Part shown: one piece after another, positions 7,967 to 24,812 of the stretch | How the letters are laid out: every line of letters starts with the position of its first letter | How positions within the stretch are numbered: position 1 is the stretch's first letter | Assembly: GCA_048881705.1 (NCBI GenBank) | Contig: JBHLSH010000001.1 | Location: forward strand, 64,001-128,000 | DNA from: Candidatus Heimdallarchaeota archaeon | GTDB taxonomy: Archaea > Asgardarchaeota > Heimdallarchaeia > Hodarchaeales > Hodarchaeaceae | Direction of reading: 5' to 3' | DNA length: 64,000 nucleotides | Notes under the pieces: generated by a model | What the model was told of the DNA's origin: nothing | Database searches by the model: none | Seen by the model: the letters and a program-made list of their open reading frames with translations, nothing else | Translations under genes and position numbers: made by a program

Positions 7967-8764
7967 ATGAATAATGATTCGTCTAAACTTGTACTGAGGC
8001 ATCGTTCGGAAAAAAAACATGATCCAGATGCCACCATTTGCGAGTGTGTCGCTGATTTTCAGCCTGAATGGGTTGCAGTCGGCTTTCCGGGTCATGGATT
8101 GGTCGGTAATATAGCTGCAAAGCATATGATCCAAGAGCTGAACCTTGAGTGGATTGGTTCGATCAGGTCACCCCACATCCCTCCAGTAAGTGTGTTTATC
8201 GATGGAATCCTGACATATCCATATCGGATCTATGGCGATAAAGATCAGAAACTTATGGTAATGATCGGTGAAGCTCCATGCCCACCCCAAGCATATTACT
8301 TTCTTGCCCACGCACTCCTAGAATGGGCAATCGAAATAGGAACTAGACAGGTTATCTGTATGGATGGGTTTATTGATACACAAGGAAAGACCAGCACAGA
8401 TTCCGTTTATCTAGTGGCTGAACCCCAATTTTACAAGGAAGATCCCGAACTCATAGCTCATGAATTCCCCAAACCCCATACCGGCTTCATTTCGGGCCTT
8501 TCGGGAGCAATCATGAATGAAGCGCTATTAACTTCGATTTTAGGATATACATTTCTCATACCAGTAGCAGGTTCCTATCCTGATCCTGGTGGCGCTGCAA
8601 AATTGGTTCAGGCGATTGGCAAAGTCAAAAATATTGAGATTGATGTATCACGGCTTCTGAAAGATGCAGAGCAGATTCAGAAGTCGCTTATGGAGTTGGC
8701 AGACCGTAATCGTCAAATCACTCAAAGTGAGGGCCTAATCCCAAGTAAAGGATTATATGTCTAA
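7967..8764 (+). CDS. PAC2-family proteasome assembly chaperone (PbaA/B-like)
   Basis: VGFPGHGLVGNIAAKHMI, YPYRIY, GFISGLSGAIM, YPDPGGAAKLV, IDVSRLLKDAEQI are typical PAC2 motifs. Confidence 0.88.
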   Translation: MNNDSSKLVLRHRSEKKHDPDATICECVADFQPEWVAVGFPGHGLVGNIAAKHMIQELNLEWIGSIRSPHIPPVSVFIDGILTYPYRIYGDKDQKLMVMIGEAPCPPQAYYFLAHALLEWAIEIGTRQVICMDGFIDTQGKTSTDSVYLVAEPQFYKEDPELIAHEFPKPHTGFISGLSGAIMNEALLTSILGYTFLIPVAGSYPDPGGAAKLVQAIGKVKNIEIDVSRLLKDAEQIQKSLMELADRNRQITQSEGLIPSKGLYV

Positions 8765-9589: not shown

Positions 9590-10567
9590 TCATAAAACAA
9601 GTCGTTCATGACACATAGGGCACTGATTAAAGACCTTAAGCCACTCTAATAGATGTGCTCTATGGAACTGGTTCAAACACATAGGACAAGATGTACTGGC
9701 CTCTTCTACGAGGATAACGGCCCGACATATGACACAAAATTGAGTTTCTGATTGATTTTCTTCTTCAAATGTCCAGGTAAGGCGAATCGAATCTGTGTTC
9801 GCAAATTCGTGTCCCAGACGGTCAACAGTTAAAACCTGTTCTCCTCCTTCGGAAATTCTTACTTGACCCTGAATTTCACCTCCATCAAGTACAGATTCTA
9901 GGATACGCGTGAGTAAGACCTCATCGATATCATGATCTGAGATAGCTTTTCTTGTCTTAAACAAGAGATAATCTGCTTCAATTTCATTTTTGGGTTTTGA
10001 AAGATGTTTTCGAACGGTATCCAGCATGATCTTCCTGGTTCTAGCTAGGAACAGCAAATTTTCGCGTTTTTTTTCAATTTCTCTCATGGAATCTCTTGCC
10101 ATCCCCAAGAGGAGGTCCAATTCTTCGTGAATATCCTGTTTTTTTATCAAGTTTTTACTAGATTTGATTTCTTCAGTCGTCTTTTGGTGAATGTCAGATA
10201 TTTCGCTGTGTAAGGCATCGATCTCTTTTAACGTGGAGTTTAATGTTCCCAAGGGTTGAAGCGAACCGATCTGATCGATTTGAAGCGCGATTTGCTGAGT
10301 ATCCAGACGACGATCATGCAACTCGGAAAAATAACCTGAAATAGTGTGAAAAAATGGACGACGAAGTATTCTATCGGTAACAAAGGCAAAAGCAAGACAT
10401 ATAAAGCCGATACTCAAGAGAATAAATTCGTTGTTCTCATTCGGGATGGTTGGGTCAAACGACGTTGCAAGCAAGACGATATAGAAACCCAAGGCTAAAA
10501 AAATTAGGAAATTTCCTGTTGTTTTCATCCGTGAGAGGCGAGGTAGCCTGGTAACACTTGTGGCCAT
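9590..10567 (-). CDS. Membrane-anchored RING-variant protein (putative E3 ubiquitin ligase)
   Basis: Two N-terminal TM helices, a coiled coil, a wHTH-like segment, and C-terminal CVIC-x12-CPMC-x3-FHRAH-LLEWL-x5-CPMC. Confidence 0.8.
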   Translation of the reverse strand: MATSVTRLPRLSRMKTTGNFLIFLALGFYIVLLATSFDPTIPNENNEFILLSIGFICLAFAFVTDRILRRPFFHTISGYFSELHDRRLDTQQIALQIDQIGSLQPLGTLNSTLKEIDALHSEISDIHQKTTEEIKSSKNLIKKQDIHEELDLLLGMARDSMREIEKKRENLLFLARTRKIMLDTVRKHLSKPKNEIEADYLLFKTRKAISDHDIDEVLLTRILESVLDGGEIQGQVRISEGGEQVLTVDRLGHEFANTDSIRLTWTFEEENQSETQFCVICRAVILVEEASTSCPMCLNQFHRAHLLEWLKVFNQCPMCHERLVL

Positions 10568-12495: not shown

Positions 12496-13254
12496 TTAGG
12501 ATTCTTTGTCACGTTGAGTTTTTATTATAAAGGCCGTCATTTTCCTGACATCGTTTTTCATTGAGGCAAGTTCTGCAACAACTTTTTCCTCTACCGCATT
12601 GTTAATTGCCTGGCTTAATAAATCAGGGAGAGCTGCAATTGTTTGGGTCAATTGGGTTATAATATTAGTCAATCTGTTCAACGATTCATCTTGCATTGCC
12701 AGCCGCTCTGTCACTGAAGTTTTTAATTCGTTTACACTCGCTTCCAGATAGATAGTAATGCGATCTTTTAAGGCAACCAACTCGACCTGAATAATAGCAT
12801 GTACACGATCCCGAAGATCTGCAACAGCAGCCAGCTGATCAGTTTGGTTTTCGATTAATGCGTTTAATCGTCCCTCAATGATTTCGAGCTTGTCCGAAAT
12901 TGGAACAAAATTGCTCACACTCACTTCGTAAAGATTCTTAATCTGCCCGGTTGAGCCGGAAACTGTAGCTTCGATCTCTTGAGCGAGTTTACGGATTGGT
13001 CCGACCACATCTTCAAGGTAGCTCACCTTGATAAACTTGAGATCTTTTTTTGTCTCTTCCGTAGCACCCGTGAATGTATTTTGAAATTCATCCAAGGAAC
13101 TTTGAAGAGTTCTTAGAAGAATAGGGAGTTGTTCCACACTCTGGATCGTTTCAATACTAAGATTCTGCGGGGATGTATGTTGGATTTGCCGAATAGCGTC
13201 TATAATCTCAACAGCCATTTCTTCTATTGATTTAATACCTGCTTCGATTCCCAT
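12496..13254 (-). CDS. All-helical coiled-coil protein (apolipoprotein/MCP-like heptads)
   Basis: 252 aa of continuous heptad pattern rich in E/Q/L/I/A; no catalytic motif. Confidence 0.75.
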   Translation of the reverse strand: MGIEAGIKSIEEMAVEIIDAIRQIQHTSPQNLSIETIQSVEQLPILLRTLQSSLDEFQNTFTGATEETKKDLKFIKVSYLEDVVGPIRKLAQEIEATVSGSTGQIKNLYEVSVSNFVPISDKLEIIEGRLNALIENQTDQLAAVADLRDRVHAIIQVELVALKDRITIYLEASVNELKTSVTERLAMQDESLNRLTNIITQLTQTIAALPDLLSQAINNAVEEKVVAELASMKNDVRKMTAFIIKTQRDKES

Positions 13255-13556: not shown

Positions 13557-14633
13557 TTATTTAAGTCGTCGAAGTAACTCAACGTAGCGCTTGTTATGAA
13601 GAAGAGATTCGTTCAATCTACTAATCATCACTAAAGTCTCAGAAAGAATGTATTGCTTTAAATCATTCCCAGTTGCCCGTTCGATGTCAGCATAAATATC
13701 CTTAGCGACACTAAACGATACATTCGGAATACGTGATTCAAGATCACCTCCTCCAAGATTATAATTCTGAAGAAGAATTCGTGAGGCACGTTGGGAATCT
13801 TGCAAGCTTCGTTCCTCTATTAAAAACTGCGAAATGCCAATATAATAGCGCGAAATAATATCACGAATCTGTTCCAAATCAGTCGGTTCAACTTCAGATT
13901 CCTGGAGGTCAGGAAACATTTTTTTTAGATTCTGAAGCAGTCGAGCAGAGGGAGCTTCACGCAGCAGTTTACTGATTATTGTTCGTAGGTGTGCCGTGGG
14001 AATCTGTAAGATTTCCGAATCGTGCGAATGAGAGTATTGGGGTTGAATCTCATAGGACAGAAGATCTTTGCAGGCCGCAAGATAATAGTTCGGAAAGCCC
14101 AGATGTGATAAAGCGGAATAAGAGCTGATTAGTGATTCAATCGACTCAATGATACCCCATTTGTCTATTGTTTGGGATTTCCTGAGAAAAATCCCGGCCT
14201 CAGTACTACCAGCTGGGGGGATAGCTTCTGTGTAGGCAGTTGCTTTTGTTGTGTTTTCGGCCATCGTCTCCTGGAGTCTTTTTAGCTCAGCTTCAAGTCC
14301 TTCTATCTTTTCGAGTAGTTTAAGCCCCGAAACAGGTTGTATTAACAATTGGTGAATATAATTTTCAACCAGTTTGATCTCACTACGTAATGATTTAGGA
14401 ATTGTACTGGGTTCTCCAATGTACTGAATAATTGTCGTAACCAGTTGGAGAAGTACAAGAACTAACCCCGTAATGATGTTGATTTTTTCGCCAATGTTTC
14501 CACGGGAATTCCAAAACTCAGGGTATCGCATCAATTGTTGAGATTTAAAATCGGAGGTTGATGGATTTATGGAGGAGGATGTAGATTCATCTTTTCCTCG
14601 TTGATGATTTTCGTCCACAGTATAGGCATCCAC
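13557..14633 (-). CDS. Putative membrane-anchored coiled-coil/helical protein, downstream partner of the tubulin-like gene
   Basis: GTG start directly abuts the TAA of the tubulin-like gene. Hydrophobic segment IITGLVLVLLQLVTTIIQYIG, then coiled coil LLEKIEGLEAELKRLQETMAE. Confidence 0.75.
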   Translation of the reverse strand: MDAYTVDENHQRGKDESTSSSINPSTSDFKSQQLMRYPEFWNSRGNIGEKINIITGLVLVLLQLVTTIIQYIGEPSTIPKSLRSEIKLVENYIHQLLIQPVSGLKLLEKIEGLEAELKRLQETMAENTTKATAYTEAIPPAGSTEAGIFLRKSQTIDKWGIIESIESLISSYSALSHLGFPNYYLAACKDLLSYEIQPQYSHSHDSEILQIPTAHLRTIISKLLREAPSARLLQNLKKMFPDLQESEVEPTDLEQIRDIISRYYIGISQFLIEERSLQDSQRASRILLQNYNLGGGDLESRIPNVSFSVAKDIYADIERATGNDLKQYILSETLVMISRLNESLLHNKRYVELLRRLK

Positions 14634-16031
14634 TTACTCATTCGAGGTTTTTTGATCAGGTGTAATATAATATCCGAAAAGTTTCTCTAGATCATCGACC
14701 GCAGAAACCAGCGCACCTCTGGTTGTACCTTTAGATCTTTGAAACCAATGTTGTTTAAGTTCAGAGCTGCCGCTATGGAGATCGATGAGTGCTTTGGCTT
14801 CCTGCAAAATATCATAAAGCTCTGGGATTCGGGGGAGCCCAAAAAGTAAGAGTAAGGATGCTCTCGCATCATCATCATCATATGCGCAATATGTGGGAGA
14901 AATGCTAGCCCCTTTAGCAAGAAAAGGTGATAGCGCCTTTTTAAGTAAGGGATCAAATTCCACACGAGCAATCTCACGTGGTCCAGAGAGTACGGAAAAT
15001 ACCGATGATGCTGATGGATTGGTACCCATTTCTGTTAAGCTTCCATGACCCGCAGTGTATTCAACTGCAGTAGATAGTTGTGATCCGACTCCACCAACTT
15101 CAGGAAAGATCGCCAGATCATCAAACATGGCAGGGACAACCACACTATCAAGTTTTAATGCAAAGTCTCCAATATCCGTGGTTGGAAGTACCTCTTTACC
15201 TACTTCAGGTACCCCAGGTGACAGCATCTCCGCAATAGACTCCAAGGCCAAGGGATTTACCAACTCGACAAAAGCTTCTTCCATGTGAGGTATTTGAGTT
15301 GAATTTACACCTCCCAAAACCCCTCCCAAAGGGGAGGCGGTCTGCATGGGACCAGAAGTTTTAGATGTAGATAGATTTGATAGATCTTCTCCGGTCTGTC
15401 GACTTAATAGATCCACAGCTTCACCCCTTTGCATACTTAGAACACGTTCGAGCATTGTTCGATTAGAAAGCAAGAGGATGAGATCGGGCCCCATATTATC
15501 CTCCTCTAATTGAAGGCGTAATAGCTTGGATAATGCCCAAACACTATTCACGGCTTCTGATGACTGATTCAGAAAAGGTAGAACTCCAAAGACGTAAATA
15601 AATATTTTTCGTTTCTCTTGTTCTGCAAATCGTTTTCGAAGTAGTCGAATTAAAGCAGGAGTTCCCCCACAGCCAGTACCCCCTCCAAACGATGTTAAAA
15701 GGATGAATCCAGAAATACCCTCATAACCAAGCGATTGGAGTTGGTTGAGAACGATATCTTCCGAATTTAGCACTGCATCGTAACCAGCTGCGAATTTTCC
15801 GCCAACACCAATCTCGGCATCAGAATAGAGAAGAGTTCTTTTTGAGGAAATTGAATACTTCTTACGTGCTTTTAATAGGTCTCCACGATCTGTATTCATA
15901 ATCAAATATTCCCGTATCCGATGTGGAAGCTCCCCTCGGTTCGAACGAGCCAAATAGCTTCCAAGCAGGTTACTACCACATTCACCAATTCCTATTGCAA
16001 ATATTTCAGATTCTATTCCTTCCAATGCCAT
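14634..16031 (-). CDS. Divergent tubulin/FtsZ-superfamily GTPase (CetZ-like core, tubulin-like C-terminus)
   Basis: T1 GIGECGSNL, T2 MNTDRGDL, T3 GVGGKFAAG, T4 signature SFGGGTGCGG, T5 GVLPF, EAVNSVWAL, T7 TTDIGDF. ATG at 16031 (ORF track uses the GTG at 16034). Confidence 0.9.
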   Translation of the reverse strand: MALEGIESEIFAIGIGECGSNLLGSYLARSNRGELPHRIREYLIMNTDRGDLLKARKKYSISSKRTLLYSDAEIGVGGKFAAGYDAVLNSEDIVLNQLQSLGYEGISGFILLTSFGGGTGCGGTPALIRLLRKRFAEQEKRKIFIYVFGVLPFLNQSSEAVNSVWALSKLLRLQLEEDNMGPDLILLLSNRTMLERVLSMQRGEAVDLLSRQTGEDLSNLSTSKTSGPMQTASPLGGVLGGVNSTQIPHMEEAFVELVNPLALESIAEMLSPGVPEVGKEVLPTTDIGDFALKLDSVVVPAMFDDLAIFPEVGGVGSQLSTAVEYTAGHGSLTEMGTNPSASSVFSVLSGPREIARVEFDPLLKKALSPFLAKGASISPTYCAYDDDDARASLLLLFGLPRIPELYDILQEAKALIDLHSGSSELKQHWFQRSKGTTRGALVSAVDDLEKLFGYYITPDQKTSNE

Positions 16032-16056
16032 CACAATTCACATACCTTGACAAAAT

Positions 16057-19000
16057 TCAGTCTAAATTAACGCTAGTTTTATTTTCAATAAAAAGCCTCA
16101 TAACAAGGGATAAATAGGCTTGAATCACGTTGTTTTGGGGATACGTCTCCTTGATTTTCTTTTTGATGTCTTTGTACTGCCTAAGATTCTCCTCTGGGTT
16201 TTCAGTAGGAGTATATCGAGGACGAAACATCCTAATGGCCCGATGCCAACGATTCAATTGGTTTGATACCTTAACCCATTCTACACGTTTTTGGTCAATA
16301 AAAGGGAGAAGCTCTAGAATGCGTTTCAAACTTTGAGAATGCGTGAGCTCCTCTCTTGCCTTGATGAGCTCAGAAAGAGGGTAAATTGAGTCTGAAGCTT
16401 CCTCAGAAAATCGAGAAAAGACTTCTTGAATACTAGAGTAGTATTTCAACTGCCCTAGTTCAGCCTGCAGAGCAATCGAGCGGTCTGCTTCCACGACCTT
16501 AATAGTATCGCTCACCTGTCTTGAAACTTGATTCAAACGAATTAAAGCCTCCGTCAGATGTCCCACATGAGTAACAGATGATAATTTCTGAAACACACCT
16601 ATCGCGGAAAAATCCAACCGATTATCTTGGCTTAAGTTTCGATTATGATATTGAGCTAGATAGTTAATCGCGGCGTTGATACTCTGTATGATTTGATCGC
16701 CCATGGACCGAATCTCTCTACACGCTGCTGAATCGGTTTGGAGGCTGTCAATCTCTGTAAAAACCTCAGTAATCTCCTTTATGTTAACATCTTCCTGATT
16801 TTTAACAAGTACTTGGGAGAAACGTTCAATGTAGCCTCCTACATGGCTGATGATAGATATTCCCATGTCTTTCAAATCATTGACATTTTTGAGAATCTTC
16901 TTCGATTCAACAACCGCTTGCGCCAGAAGAATAGCCACTATTTCGGTATCATACAAAAAGATCAGTTGTCTAAGTTTATTTGCCAGGCGTTCATGTGAGA
17001 CATCTTCGACCTCGAAATCTGCTATTTTTGTTTCTGCCGCGAAAACAGCTGCATCGACAGGTACAATCTCGTTTATTCTTGGAAGACTAACCCGTAGCCA
17101 ATTGTGGAGATTCTGATGCAGCTTTGCTAGGGAATTCTTAGCTAATTGTAATGATTCTAATGAATAACTCTCATAGATGTTAACCAACTGCACTATGTCC
17201 TTATGAGTCTTGATTTCTTCCATTCTCTCTCGCATAAGGGAAATAGGTTCCTCAAAGAATTCAGCATACTGAGGGGGCAGCTTGGAATAATCTTGAATGT
17301 GACTATGAATCTCCCGTTCCATCTGTTCTGTTAAGGCGGCCACACGCCGTTCTATATAAGCATTTAATTGCCAATACTCTGTTAAGGCTTCAGAGTAATC
17401 GAGAACATCAAATTCTCTTTCCGTGGAAAACGTAGGAGAGGTTCGACGTGATTTCAACAACCGATATAAGCGTTTATCTACCTCCTCCAAATTCTCAATC
17501 TGTTTTTTTAATTCTACCAATATCTCATTCTTATATTCTTCAATAGTTCTTAGAAATCCAATATATTCTTGGATCATGGCCTCCATGTTTCCGTCTTCTG
17601 ACAACTGATCGATATTACCAATAATCTCATTCCGCTTTTCACGAAGATCGAAACGTGTCTCAATAGGAATCAAAGGGAAGGGGATCGCTTTGAGATTCTC
17701 ACGAACTCGAGTTGCTATTTTGTATTTCCAGACAGGTATCTTTTCATATTCATCCAAGAGCTGGGGAAGCCCCTCTTCAGCTGCAATGGCGATACCATCT
17801 CGGAAGGCCTTCAAATCGTCTAGTGCTAAGACGGGAACATGAGCTTTTAATTTTGGAGGTATGGTTTCTAGGATTGTGAGTTGGCTGTATATTGGATTTA
17901 TCTCCGCATCAATCGCAGATAAGATCTCCGTGCGGATGGTTGATTTGAGACGAGTCAGGATGTCTATCTCTCTAACGAGTTCTCGTATTTCTTTGTCCTC
18001 CACACTCTTTTGTTTCCGCTGTGTCTCAATTTGTTGTGTTGTTGGTTCCGATAACAGCTTTTGGAGGCTTTCTCGAGAGTCTAACAAATTGAGAAGGTTT
18101 TGTCGCAGACTTTGCTGAGCTGGCTTGGAAAAAAACGCGACCAATCGGGTTTCCCAGTCCTTAATCTCGCGGGCTTTCGCAACCAATTCACTAGGAGCGA
18201 AATCCTTAAGGTCACGGATGATAGGAATTTGAGGTCCCTCACTAACGTTAATGGCTTCTTGAATGTATGGGTTCTCCAAAAGCCGATAGAAATACTGTTG
18301 ACAAGCATCAGCTAACATCGCTAGGAGATCGAAGTATCGTTGAACCAAGGCCATCCAGGTTGACATATTCTGAGCGTTTTTTGCATCTTTATCAATTATA
18401 CGGAGTTCTTTAGTAAATTCTTCTGGAATAGGTATCTTCATGGCTTTGATTGTCTTTCCTGCGTTCATGAGAGCGGCGGTGCTGATTAAATCCCTAGTTG
18501 CCAAGACTTGGTTTTGCTGCCATGTTCGGAGCTTTTCGATATCTCGGATAATTTCAGAAAGATCTGTTGTTGAAACATTTATTTCTGGAGCAGAAGCTAG
18601 GGAAGATTCTAGACCCAGTTTGCCCGAGATTTGGAGAATTCGGCCTATTCTTTCTTCAGTTTCAGCCTTTAAAGAGATTTCATATGTTCTAAGAGAGTTT
18701 AGGAATTCCGAGTTGAGTTCATTAAGTCCCTTTTCCCATAATATTAAGGATTCAACTGAGCTACTGTCTTCGGCATTGCTTTTAATTTCCTGAACTTGAT
18801 CCTTGAGAAGATTGATCTTGTCACCCAGCTCACTAGCCAAACTAATAGAGGTGACAGTGTCGAGATGTTGTTGAAGTTCGGAAGACATCTGGATGATCGC
18901 GACCTGAATCTTACCTTCGGTGCCTTTTCGGCGTTGTTTCAAATAGGCGCTTTCGGTCTCGAGATGATTATAGAGCTCAAGTAGATCAGAGACACCCATG

Positions 19001-19569
19001 ACGTGTACCGCATTTTTTGTTGTTCTCCTGGTTACCTGGATTTTTTCCTCATCAAAATCCACGAACTTGGTGTAAAGATCCAAGATCTCCCTATTATGAA
19101 CCAAAATTGCGATATTTTTTCCCCGTAAAATCTCCGAAATCTGGCTATGGGTCTTCAGGACGTTGGTACTGAAATTCAGAATCTGTTGAGGATCAAAACT
19201 AGGAATTTGAAGAGCCCGAATATTGTCAGTCTCTTGCGGGATAAATTTAGCGATTTCTTTGATGTTGTTAGCCAAATCAAAGTAAATCTTTCGATACCCA
19301 GTTAATAAGCTCTCTGTCAAATTCTCAGTAAGTTCGCGATATTTTCCTTCTTTTTGCGCCAAACTTTTCTTGAGACCACGCTTTTTGAAAAAACCTGCGT
19401 CAGGAAGGTCTTTTTTTATCCTTTCTATTTCAGTTACCAGCTTTTGTGCTTCGTTAAGCGGAGAGATAATTTGCACCATAGGATCTAATGACCTTAGTTC
19501 TGTAGCTAATCCACCAATCTCGTGCAGTTGTTCCTTTGAGACGTGACTCATGCGTGTATCTGATGACAT
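16057..19569 (-). CDS. Giant alpha-helical repeat protein (~1170 aa), first gene of the tubulin-like operon
   Basis: Long uninterrupted ORF, all-helical composition, recurrent ~65-70-aa motif. Probable ATG at 19569 (ORF track 19614). Ends 25 nt before the tubulin-like ATG. Confidence 0.85.
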   Translation of the reverse strand: MSSDTRMSHVSKEQLHEIGGLATELRSLDPMVQIISPLNEAQKLVTEIERIKKDLPDAGFFKKRGLKKSLAQKEGKYRELTENLTESLLTGYRKIYFDLANNIKEIAKFIPQETDNIRALQIPSFDPQQILNFSTNVLKTHSQISEILRGKNIAILVHNREILDLYTKFVDFDEEKIQVTRRTTKNAVHVMGVSDLLELYNHLETESAYLKQRRKGTEGKIQVAIIQMSSELQQHLDTVTSISLASELGDKINLLKDQVQEIKSNAEDSSSVESLILWEKGLNELNSEFLNSLRTYEISLKAETEERIGRILQISGKLGLESSLASAPEINVSTTDLSEIIRDIEKLRTWQQNQVLATRDLISTAALMNAGKTIKAMKIPIPEEFTKELRIIDKDAKNAQNMSTWMALVQRYFDLLAMLADACQQYFYRLLENPYIQEAINVSEGPQIPIIRDLKDFAPSELVAKAREIKDWETRLVAFFSKPAQQSLRQNLLNLLDSRESLQKLLSEPTTQQIETQRKQKSVEDKEIRELVREIDILTRLKSTIRTEILSAIDAEINPIYSQLTILETIPPKLKAHVPVLALDDLKAFRDGIAIAAEEGLPQLLDEYEKIPVWKYKIATRVRENLKAIPFPLIPIETRFDLREKRNEIIGNIDQLSEDGNMEAMIQEYIGFLRTIEEYKNEILVELKKQIENLEEVDKRLYRLLKSRRTSPTFSTEREFDVLDYSEALTEYWQLNAYIERRVAALTEQMEREIHSHIQDYSKLPPQYAEFFEEPISLMRERMEEIKTHKDIVQLVNIYESYSLESLQLAKNSLAKLHQNLHNWLRVSLPRINEIVPVDAAVFAAETKIADFEVEDVSHERLANKLRQLIFLYDTEIVAILLAQAVVESKKILKNVNDLKDMGISIISHVGGYIERFSQVLVKNQEDVNIKEITEVFTEIDSLQTDSAACREIRSMGDQIIQSINAAINYLAQYHNRNLSQDNRLDFSAIGVFQKLSSVTHVGHLTEALIRLNQVSRQVSDTIKVVEADRSIALQAELGQLKYYSSIQEVFSRFSEEASDSIYPLSELIKAREELTHSQSLKRILELLPFIDQKRVEWVKVSNQLNRWHRAIRMFRPRYTPTENPEENLRQYKDIKKKIKETYPQNNVIQAYLSLVMRLFIENKTSVNLD

Positions 19570-19730
19570 AACCACCAATTCCACTAAATTCGAATTAAAG
19601 CTTATTAAGGGCATTTAATATTGAATCTAGATCAATGAAATTATAGTTCCTTTTAAATTCTTATCATTTGGAAGTCCTGATTACGGTTGAAAACTGTATG
19701 TGACATCATGTATGAGAGATTCAATATGCT

Positions 19731-22490: not shown

Positions 22491-24812
22491 ATGGATAGTG
22501 AGGAACATTTGTCAACTAATGGTAAATTACTCCTATTAAAGGTCGCCGAGGCAAATCAGAGTGATGTTGGTCGAGGATTAGTTCGGATTGACTATAAGAT
22601 CATGAGAGAATCCAATCTTGAGACTGGTGATATAGTAGAGATTAGTAAAGATCCAGGTAATGGGCGGAAAACGGGTGCCCTAGTAATTCCTGGACGCCAA
22701 GAAGATCGGGGAAAGCGTATTATTCGCATGGATGGCCTGATTCGCGGGAATGTAGGAACGTCTCTGGGAGAAACGGTTCGCGTTAGACCAATCAAAAAAC
22801 GTATTGCACGGCGAATTGTAATTGCTCCTGCTGAGGAACGCATACGATTATTAGTAAAACCTGAAATCATCCAAGAACGTCTTCAGAATCACCCGTTATC
22901 GCGTGGTGATCTACTGGTCATTATGGGGCAAATTCGGAAGATTCCCCCCTCAGGCGGACCGGGTACAGGTACTGGGATGGACGACTTTATTTCAAGGTTT
23001 TTTGGTGCTTCCCGCCCCGTAAGTCTCGGGGAAATAAAGGTGGTAGTCGTATCTACAGACCCTGATGGCATTGTGACGGTAGGGGAATCCACAATCGTAG
23101 AGATCATTGAAGAGGCTCCAAAGGATCTTCGAATGTTACCACGTGTAACCTATGAGGACATTGGAGGTCTCTCAGAAGAGATTAAGCGAGTACGGGAGAT
23201 GATTGAGTTACCGATGAAACACCCCGAACTGTTCGAGCGGCTGGGTATTGATCCGCCAAAAGGGGTGTTGTTGCACGGGCCCCCAGGGACAGGAAAAACT
23301 TTGTTGGCTAAAGCGGTGGCCAATGAATCTGGAGTTAATTTTGTCTCCATTGCAGGCCCCGAAATAATGAGCAAATTTTATGGAGAGAGCGAACAACGTA
23401 TTCGGGAGATCTTCAAACAATCCGAAAAAGATGCCCCCAGCATCATTTTTATTGATGAACTTGACTCGATAGCGGCCAAACGCGAAGAAGTGACTGGAGA
23501 AGTCGAACGCCGAGTCGTTGCACAACTTCTCGCACTAATGGATGGATTGAAAAGCCGAGGTAAAGTAATTGTGATTGGGGCAACTAATCGGCCTAATGCG
23601 CTTGATCCTGCCCTCCGAAGGCCTGGGCGCTTTGATAGGGAGATAGAAATTGGGGTACCCGACCAAAATGGACGGTACGAGGTTCTTCTTGTCCATACAC
23701 GAGGTATGCCGTTGGCTGAAGATGTTGACCTAAGAGAATACGCAGCTAAGACGCATGGATTTGTTGGAGCTGATCTTGCTGCGCTAATCAAAGAGGCTGC
23801 TATGCATACTCTTCGTAAAATCCTCCCTAAGATCGATTTTGATAAACCTCTAACCCCAGAAATATTGTCAAAGTTAATAGTGTCCAATGAAAACTTTGAT
23901 GAGGCATTAAAAATAACTGAACCCTCAGCCATGCGAGAAGTATTACTTGAAATACCGAATATCAGATGGGAGGATATAGGAGGCCTTGAGGATGTTAAAC
24001 AACAGCTGAAAGAAGCGGTGGAATGGCCAATCACATATCCTCAAATCTTTAAAAAACATGGGGTCACCCCACCGCATGGAATTCTGTTATATGGCCCCCC
24101 TGGGACCGGAAAAACCTTGTTAGCTAAGGCAGTAGCCACTGAAAGCCAAGCGAATTTCATCGCAATTCGCGGCCCAGAGCTTCTTTCGAAATGGGTGGGT
24201 GAGAGTGAAAAGGCTATAAGAGATGTGTTCCGTAAGGCCAAACAAGCTAGCCCTTCGATTATATTTCTAGATGAACTAGATGCCATTGCTCCACGTCGAG
24301 GGGTTTTTAGCGGCGGAAGTCATGTAATGGAAAGCGTGGTAAATCAAATCCTGTCATTGATAGATGGTCTTGAGAATCTGAGAGATGTTGTAGTGCTAGC
24401 AGCCTCAAATCGACCAGATATGATTGATCCAGCCCTTCTAAGACCAGGCAGGTTTGATCGGCTGCTTTTGGTTAAATCCCCAGATGTTTCTTCACGTGAA
24501 AAAATCTTACGAATCCACACACGGAAAATGCGGTTAGGAAAAGACGTTAATCTGGTTCAGTTGGCAGATGATCTTGAAAGTTATGTTGGTGCCGATATTG
24601 AAGCTATATGCCGGGAAGCAGTGATGATTGCACTACGAGACGATCTAAATATTGAAACAATTGAAATGAGGCATTTTGAAGCTGCAAAAAAGATTGTTCA
24701 TGCCAGTTCTGGACCAGAAATTGAGCAACGATTCCAAGAACTAGAACGAAAACTCCTTGGCAAGTCAGAAATCGGGAGAAAAGACGTCCTTGGCTTGAAG
24801 GATTATCTATGA
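22491..24812 (+). CDS. cdc48: Cdc48/VCP AAA ATPase
   Basis: N-domain [10 protein letters not shown]; two AAA cassettes ([18 protein letters not shown] / [18 protein letters not shown]; FIDELD / FLDELD; ALRRPGRFD / ALLRPGRFD). Confidence 0.97.

Follow-up and report, generated by a model that had tools for sequence, protein, structure and literature searches.

A conserved three-gene module around the Asg.Tub GTPase of Asgard archaea, a candidate tubulin-type cytoskeletal system

The window considered here is a stretch of 64,000 nucleotides from a Candidatus Heimdallarchaeota genome (assembly GCA_048881705.1, contig JBHLSH010000001.1, positions 64,001 to 128,000). It carries three closely packed minus-strand genes, here called A, B and C, the second of which encodes a GTPase of the tubulin/FtsZ superfamily lying between the genes of a giant helical protein and of a smaller helical one. 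The locus raises the question of whether these genes form a system of their own and, if so, what a tubulin relative may be doing in it. A first-pass annotation, made from the sequence alone, had read them as a dedicated and undescribed cytoskeletal or membrane-remodelling module consisting of a filament, a long spacer or cross-linker and a membrane anchor.

The distribution of the three genes was followed in 301 Asgard genomes from 30 families (coded f1 and so on), 90 of the genomes being of high quality. A was found in 118 genomes, B in 115 and C in 113, all three being confined to the same nine of the 30 families (f1, f2, f10, f11, f13, f17, f19, f20 and f28), and each gene was present in 32 of the 90 high-quality genomes. 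The division between families was sharp for B, which occurred in 19/20 genomes of f1, 66/76 of f11 and 15/19 of f17 compared with 0/68 of f14 and 0/29 of f3. Gene order was compared in 21 loci, namely 20 that were fetched and the window itself. A lay directly upstream of B in 21/21 loci and C directly downstream of B in 18/18 complete non-paralogue loci; the order A-B-C, with short gaps or overlaps, was kept in all 18 complete loci, which represent nine Asgard families, and no other neighbour was conserved across lineages in the 20 loci and the window. Since the arrangement was found in every complete locus examined, in nine Asgard families, it is not the result of chance. As a rule the module occurs on the chromosome, in one copy and throughout a lineage. 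Between Hodarchaeales and Thorarchaeia the identity amounts to 52-55% for B, 17-20% for A and 20-25% for C. A-B-C is a self-contained, vertically inherited Asgard module, and the proposal that the genes form a dedicated unit is borne out by their co-inheritance in nine families and by the retention of their order.

Some loci depart from this pattern. An f2-type locus encodes an A of 1311 amino acids and a C of 602. In genome G037 (contig C69) C lies 8 kb from B, and in G119 (contig C96) and G184 (contig C230) A lies 4-10 kb from B, which suggests that insertions are behind these interrupted cassettes. Three congener loci (L038, L040 and L004) hold a paralogous pair, A' of ~1140 and B' of ~441 amino acids, which was not found in the present assembly. 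B' is deep-branching, being sister to all other family members when FtsZ and OdinTubulin serve as outgroup, and in L004 the pair is situated among Arf-family GTPase genes together with a faint Roadblock/LC7 match. In locus L060 (GCA_048885365.1, a metagenome-assembled genome labelled Odinarchaeota) B has 475 amino acids (57% identical) and C 374, and a peptidyl-prolyl isomerase gene stands upstream of B in the place of A.

The GTPase domain of B was recognized by PF00091 over residues 10-172 with 57.3 bits (cut-off 33), and with 59.8 bits in the genome scan; no Pfam match to FtsZ_C or to Tubulin_C (PF03953) was obtained in B, and with the FtsZ equivalog TIGR00065 it reached 25.2 bits where the cut-off is 295.2. 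The alignment of 27 B sequences has a mean column identity of 55%. The motifs G-x-G-E-C-G-x-N (T1), NTD (T2), G-V-G-G (T3), GGGTGCG (T4), L-P-F..Q..E..N (T5) and S-N-R (T6) are invariant throughout this alignment, as expected from the earlier reading that B carries the nucleotide loops of tubulin and FtsZ. The element T-T-D287-x-x-D290-F is likewise invariant, both acidic residues included, and a variable insertion of 33-45 residues separates T6 from the presumed helix H7. The best PDB profile matches of B were 4b46, 3zid and 4b45 (E values from 1.5e-13 to 5e-8), which we take to be the CetZ entries of Duggin et al. 2015, the depositors' names reading FtsZ/tubulin. Beta- and gamma-tubulin, OdinTubulin, BtubA/B and AtubA came next, and these alignments cover the N-terminal domain only. 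In profile-profile comparison this domain is equally close to Asgard FtsZ (95.7%) and to OdinTubulin-type proteins (95.9%).

The tubulin-superfamily complement of this genome consists of B and one canonical FtsZ, encoded on contig C37 and possessing both the Tubulin and the FtsZ_C domain. A third PF00091 match (G000 contig C126, L003 1435-2466, 22 bits) was discarded as a false positive, the protein being the quinolinate synthase NadA. Weak matches of 32-37 bits were also noticed in Heimdallarchaeia genomes of families f3 and f4 (L097-L100).

A group of this kind has been described before. Santana-Molina, del Saz-Navarro and Devos 2023 (Front Microbiol 13:1100249, PMC9871819) defined Asg.Tub as a "novel CetZ-like group in Asgardarchaeota", a phylogenetic group of four sequences, with no function tested, whose position was unstable between CetZ and tubulins and whose neighbours were "unknown genes", mostly with coiled-coil regions. 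The founders (OLS26264.1, PWI48967.1, KXH77455.1 and OLS30664.1) come from LC-3, B3-JM-08 and two Thorarchaeales. Their C-terminal alignment (supplementary file 35 of that paper) agrees in its conserved blocks with the B family alignment, and the LC_3 founder protein (P0061) is among the B homologues, with 54% identity; judged by sequence, B belongs to Asg.Tub. In the published Fig. 6 tree file the Asg.Tub clade is supported by 100 and its stem measures 2.0 substitutions per site, with Halo.Tub as its sister group (support 62); it falls within neither the CetZ nor the artubulin-tubulin clade. The tree built here comprised 47 B family members, 31 Asgard FtsZ and 5 OdinTubulin-type proteins, and no CetZ sequences. 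The B family came out as one clade (Shimodaira-Hasegawa-like approximate likelihood ratio test, SH-aLRT, 99) whose internal branches are short and whose stem measures 2.55 substitutions per site; long stems, of 2.55 and 3.93 substitutions per site, separate it from the OdinTubulin-type proteins. Within the clade B groups by taxon, and all B matches with a source name carry Asgard group labels.

From these data B is neither a canonical FtsZ nor an OdinTubulin-type protein, as the TIGR00065 score and the separate clade in our tree show for the one and the same tree for the other, and its position outside the CetZ clade of the published tree distinguishes it from CetZ; in this respect the first-pass annotation was right. 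The module is not undescribed in the strict sense, as that annotation had supposed, the GTPase clade having been named in 2023 and its unknown coiled-coil neighbours already remarked upon. In the literature searched, the name Asg.Tub was not used in other papers and no functional study of the group was found, recent papers on the Asgard cytoskeleton included. That A and C each make up a conserved family and occur strictly together with B goes beyond the 2023 work, as do the paralogous pair and the repeats of A; none of these points, nor a dismissal of the anchor discussed below, was met with in the literature searched.

A and C could be assigned to none of the families in Pfam, NCBIfam, PADLOC or PHROGs; PADLOC, PHROGs and Rfam gave zero matches for A, B or C, and no defence or phage family matched the module. 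The AlphaFold2 model of A is all helix, with a predicted local distance difference test (pLDDT) value of 83 and a predicted template modelling score (pTM) of 0.41, and contains long helices of ~40 residues roughly every 66 residues. Alignment of the A profile with itself gave off-diagonal shifts of ~140-160 residues (E 7e-14 and 5e-13), 290 (E 1e-9), 356 (E 2e-6), 484 (E 2e-5) and 67 (E 3e-4), E values that may be inflated by helical composition. Because these shifts fit multiples of ~70 residues, A is taken to be a cryptic tandem-repeat protein with a unit of about that length. The search of the PDB with the full-length model (Foldseek, VIA-align) returned generic three-helix bundles only, none of them significant; for the models of A and C together, Z reached 11 for three-helix bundles and the Foldseek E values were at least 7e-3. 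Compared with PDB sequences, the profiles of both A and C found only weak apolipoprotein, GGA and designed-helix matches. An ESM Atlas feature search yielded nothing above 0.8, the cluster nearest to A being its own Thorarchaeota orthologues. Thor-type A proteins have ~900 amino acids and lack profile positions ~360-610. In the protein of the window, residues ~360-610 (window ~17785-18535) correspond to the central segment of ~250 residues of the Hodarchaeales versions, where the confidence of the model is lowest. The all-helical Thor versions of ~900 amino acids prompted a comparison of A with the gamma-tubulin-complex proteins (GCP), which was not supported: Pfam gave no GCP match (GRIP1/GRIP2), and no such chain was among the Foldseek and VIA-align matches listed for the whole 1185-residue model. 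To call A a "spacer or cross-linker" is pure conjecture.

The AlphaFold2 model of C is also helical. Its C-terminal domain, residues 145-358, has pLDDT above 90 and holds all the invariant residues of the family (D157, P181, P228, L232, G294, E299, R301 and the terminal K); the N-terminal three-helix unit, residues 44-129, is variable, with pLDDT of 55-72, and is followed by a variable linker. No fold match for the full-length model was found in the PDB (Foldseek, VIA-align) or in the ESM Atlas apart from generic helical bundles, and of 1.84 billion representative proteins no more than 54 matched the C profile at E<=1e-3. The role of membrane anchor had been given to C on account of a predicted transmembrane helix. 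In C of this species residues 51-69 are indeed strongly hydrophobic (Kyte-Doolittle 2.35), a character shared only by the closest relative. The corresponding position is occupied by N, S, T, Q, H or E in the other orthologues, which score 1.1-1.8, the congeners (with N and Q) lying at 1.7-1.8 and the Thor, Loki-labelled and remaining orthologues at 1.1-1.6. AlphaFold2 packs the segment into the three-helix unit. Since the orthologues have polar residues there and these low scores, the membrane anchor is, on the alignment, not a feature of the C family, and this part of the earlier reading is given up.

How might such a module work? We infer polymerisation, contacts of B with A and with C, and a role for each protein: B is probably a GTP-dependent filament former, A its repeat scaffold or stabiliser and C its adaptor. 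The module would then be a third archaeal tubulin-type cytoskeletal system. B would bind GTP through its intact T1-T6 loops and polymerise head to tail, each subunit completing the GTPase site of the next with its acidic T7 loop (T-T-D287-x-x-D290); A, with ~16 helical-repeat units, would bind the polymer as scaffold, stabiliser or bundler; and the conserved C-terminal domain of C would link the polymer to something else by means of the variable linker and the N-terminal helical unit. This filament reading is preferred because the nucleotide loops are intact and the acidic T7-like motif is invariant, and also because B is conserved like a polymer, co-inheritance is strict and C appears to be translationally coupled to B. 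A highly conserved B accompanied by fast-evolving partners is a combination typical of a polymer subunit with its adaptors. It is tempting to speculate further that the ~70-residue repeats of A read the lattice of a filament of a kind not seen before in archaea, A extending along the Asg.Tub polymer and setting its length or bundling and C serving as cargo or site adaptor, a refinement that we regard as rather improbable.

Several observations weigh against the filament reading. The congeners carry their A'-B' pair without a detectable C, and L060 has B-C with no A adjacent; as modules lacking one partner exist, the trio is not obligatory. The C-terminal half of B taken alone gave no significant profile-profile match, with E 0.18 for FtsZ and 0.037 for tubulin. 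It is the tubulin alignment of this half (E 0.037) that pairs the T-T-D-x-x-D of B with the N-x-D-x-x-E of OdinTubulin-type proteins, and its terminal H-W-F...G...A..D..L-F..Y with tubulin H11-H12, a pairing that is likewise not significant. In addition, one full-length hhalign run set T7 at D217, a register in which the second acidic residue is variable. That register is judged less likely, since D217 follows the Asn of T6 by only 26 residues, too short a stretch for H6 and H7 together. Finally, no membrane-targeting element is conserved in the module. The complex prediction for B and C, with a score of 0.18 against a mark of 0.32, counts neither for nor against a contact.

Tubulin relatives that do not polymerise and act within scaffolds are known, examples being gamma-tubulin in its ring complex and Misato, and B could similarly work as a GTPase switch, or as an assembly factor, inside a discrete A-B-C complex for which A would provide the scaffold. 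The giant, helical, scaffold-like A always beside B, the C-terminal half of B that resembles neither FtsZ nor tubulin in sequence, the variable insertion of 33-45 residues before the presumed H7 and the presence of gamma-tubulin among the better PDB sequence matches would all suit such a complex. We nevertheless hold it to be unlikely, for the invariant acidic T7-like motif favours a self-activating polymer interface, the very high conservation of B suits a polymer, and no gamma-tubulin-complex protein was among the fold matches listed for A, though the PDB contains many. A different function for the filament itself, membrane remodelling or tethering with C as a single-pass anchor in the role of SepF or ZipA, is very unlikely in our estimation. 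The strongly hydrophobic helix of 19-23 residues in C of this species (Kyte-Doolittle 2.35) and the translational coupling of C to B speak in its favour, and other divergent FtsZ-like families have been tied to membrane remodelling (Makarova and Koonin 2010, cited in PMC9871819). On the other hand, the hydrophobicity of C is not conserved in the orthologues (1.1-1.8), the segment is packed into the three-helix unit in the AlphaFold2 model, and the family alignment revealed no conserved amphipathic tail for B.

The possibility that the module is a DNA segregation machine of the TubZ/PhuZ kind, in which C or A would serve as DNA adaptor for the chromosome or for an integrated element, appears extremely unlikely. 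TubZ-type relatives do sit in small operons with dedicated adaptors, and the neighbourhoods of the cassette differ between lineages. The usual single-copy, chromosomal and lineage-wide occurrence of the module and the taxon-grouped phylogeny of B point the other way, as do the lack of PHROG or plasmid-like genes adjacent to the module, of iterons and of tandem or direct repeats in and around the operon, and of a DNA-binding fold among the searches with the full-length models of C and A.

The filament reading is best placed by comparison with characterized systems. B approaches CetZ in its GTPase domain, for which the chains 4b46, 4b45 and 3zid were the best matches, and shares with it a G-x-G-Q/E-C/A-G T1 loop, the FtsZ-like NTD of T2 and, C-terminally, a weak P-R/K-I-x-E-L helix. 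It differs in its C-terminal half, which is insignificant against the CetZ chains (second-stretch i-E-values 1.7e3 and 1.6e4), and in its place beside Halo.Tub, outside the CetZ clade. BtubA/B with BtubC in Prosthecobacter, and TubZ with TubR and in some cases TubY, are likewise encoded in small operons that combine a tubulin-superfamily polymer with dedicated helical accessory proteins. BtubC, a tetratricopeptide-repeat protein, TubR and TubY stabilise or couple the filament, and these operons may serve as a working analogy for A and C. Neither A nor C has sequence or fold similarity to any of the three; B lies outside the BtubA/B and TubZ clades, and the A-B-C module is chromosomal and Asgard-restricted. 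No counterpart was found in it to the plasmid or phage location, the DNA-binding adaptor and the centromere repeats of TubZ and PhuZ systems. OdinTubulin and AtubA/B belong to the same superfamily and phylum as B, whose C-terminal motif aligns with H11-H12 of OdinTubulin-type proteins at a level that is not significant (E 0.037). B differs from them in having no Tubulin_C and in its T2 and presumed T7 motifs, which are of the FtsZ/CetZ type, and the OdinTubulin-bearing family f8 does not overlap with the B-positive families of the sample. CetZ has, to our knowledge, no dedicated operon partners.

The layout of the locus is given in Table 1. The three tightly packed minus-strand genes of the first-pass annotation were all recovered as open reading frames; its length of ~1170 amino acids for A holds for the second ATG, which is the start chosen by gene callers and lies 15 codons on from the first, whereas the first ATG gives 1185. 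A ends with TGA at 16057-16059, and the gap between A and B is 22 nucleotides if B begins at GTG 16034 or 25 if it begins at ATG 16031. The ATG is the more likely start, as the homologues begin with MA. The stop codon of B, TAA at 14634-14636, directly abuts GTG 14633 of C, and the sequence of the junction indicates that C is translationally coupled to B; the second GTG of C, 15 nucleotides on, fits the MDENHQ start of homologues. A TATA-like TTTAAAA read at 19651-19657, 37-43 nucleotides 5' of ATG 19614, lies in the putative promoter region of the A-B-C unit.

Table 1. Features of the A-B-C locus, in positions of the window
Feature	Position	Strand	Description
Gene A	16057-19614	minus	open reading frame; 1185 amino acids from first ATG; all-helical, putative tandem-repeat protein, family-less
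Gene B	14634-16034	minus	open reading frame; 466 amino acids; tubulin/FtsZ-superfamily GTPase, Asg.Tub group by sequence; likely start ATG 16031
Gene C	13557-14633	minus	open reading frame; 358 amino acids; helical; alternative GTG start at 14618
Gene D	12496-13254	minus	open reading frame; 252 amino acids; helical; outside conserved cassette
Intergenic region 5' of A	19615-19730	minus	putative promoter of the A-B-C unit, from sequence

Gene D, a further coiled-coil gene that had been listed with the module, is separated from C by 302 nucleotides on the downstream side. Its homologues stand beside the module within the genus only, and D, which has weak apolipoprotein-like and tape-measure-like matches, was rejected as a member and is regarded as a genus-level neighbour. 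The Pfam-matched neighbours within ~5 kb on each side encode an amidohydrolase, a MoCF-biosynthesis protein, Cdc48, a nucleotidyl transferase, a RING-like protein and PAC2; neither SepF nor a Cdv gene is among them, in line with the earlier remark that a cell-division context is lacking. Near the module are found a Cdc48-type double AAA ATPase (22491-24812, plus strand), a homologue of the PAC2 proteasome-assembly chaperone (7967-8764, plus strand) and a protein that weakly matches the RING finger in its C-terminal part (9590-10567, minus strand). Synteny of the Cdc48 and MoCF genes with the module is limited to Hodarchaeales.

Since the GTPase clade was already in the literature, the advance lies in the module and the partners of B, and not in the GTPase itself. 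With FtsZ1/2 and true tubulins such as OdinTubulin and AtubA/B set aside, B represents a third lineage of the tubulin superfamily, one that is found widely in Hodarchaeales and Thorarchaeia and is conserved to an unusual degree. In contrast to CetZ, B has two partners dedicated to it, which makes A-B-C a complete, clonable three-protein system. If the repeats of A did read the lattice, this would be an Asgard-specific analogue of the eukaryotic structural microtubule-associated proteins, next to the lineage behind eukaryotes. Should B form filaments, the module would add a new cytoskeleton to those of archaea, one equipped with accessory proteins of its own; otherwise it would represent a new use of the tubulin fold.

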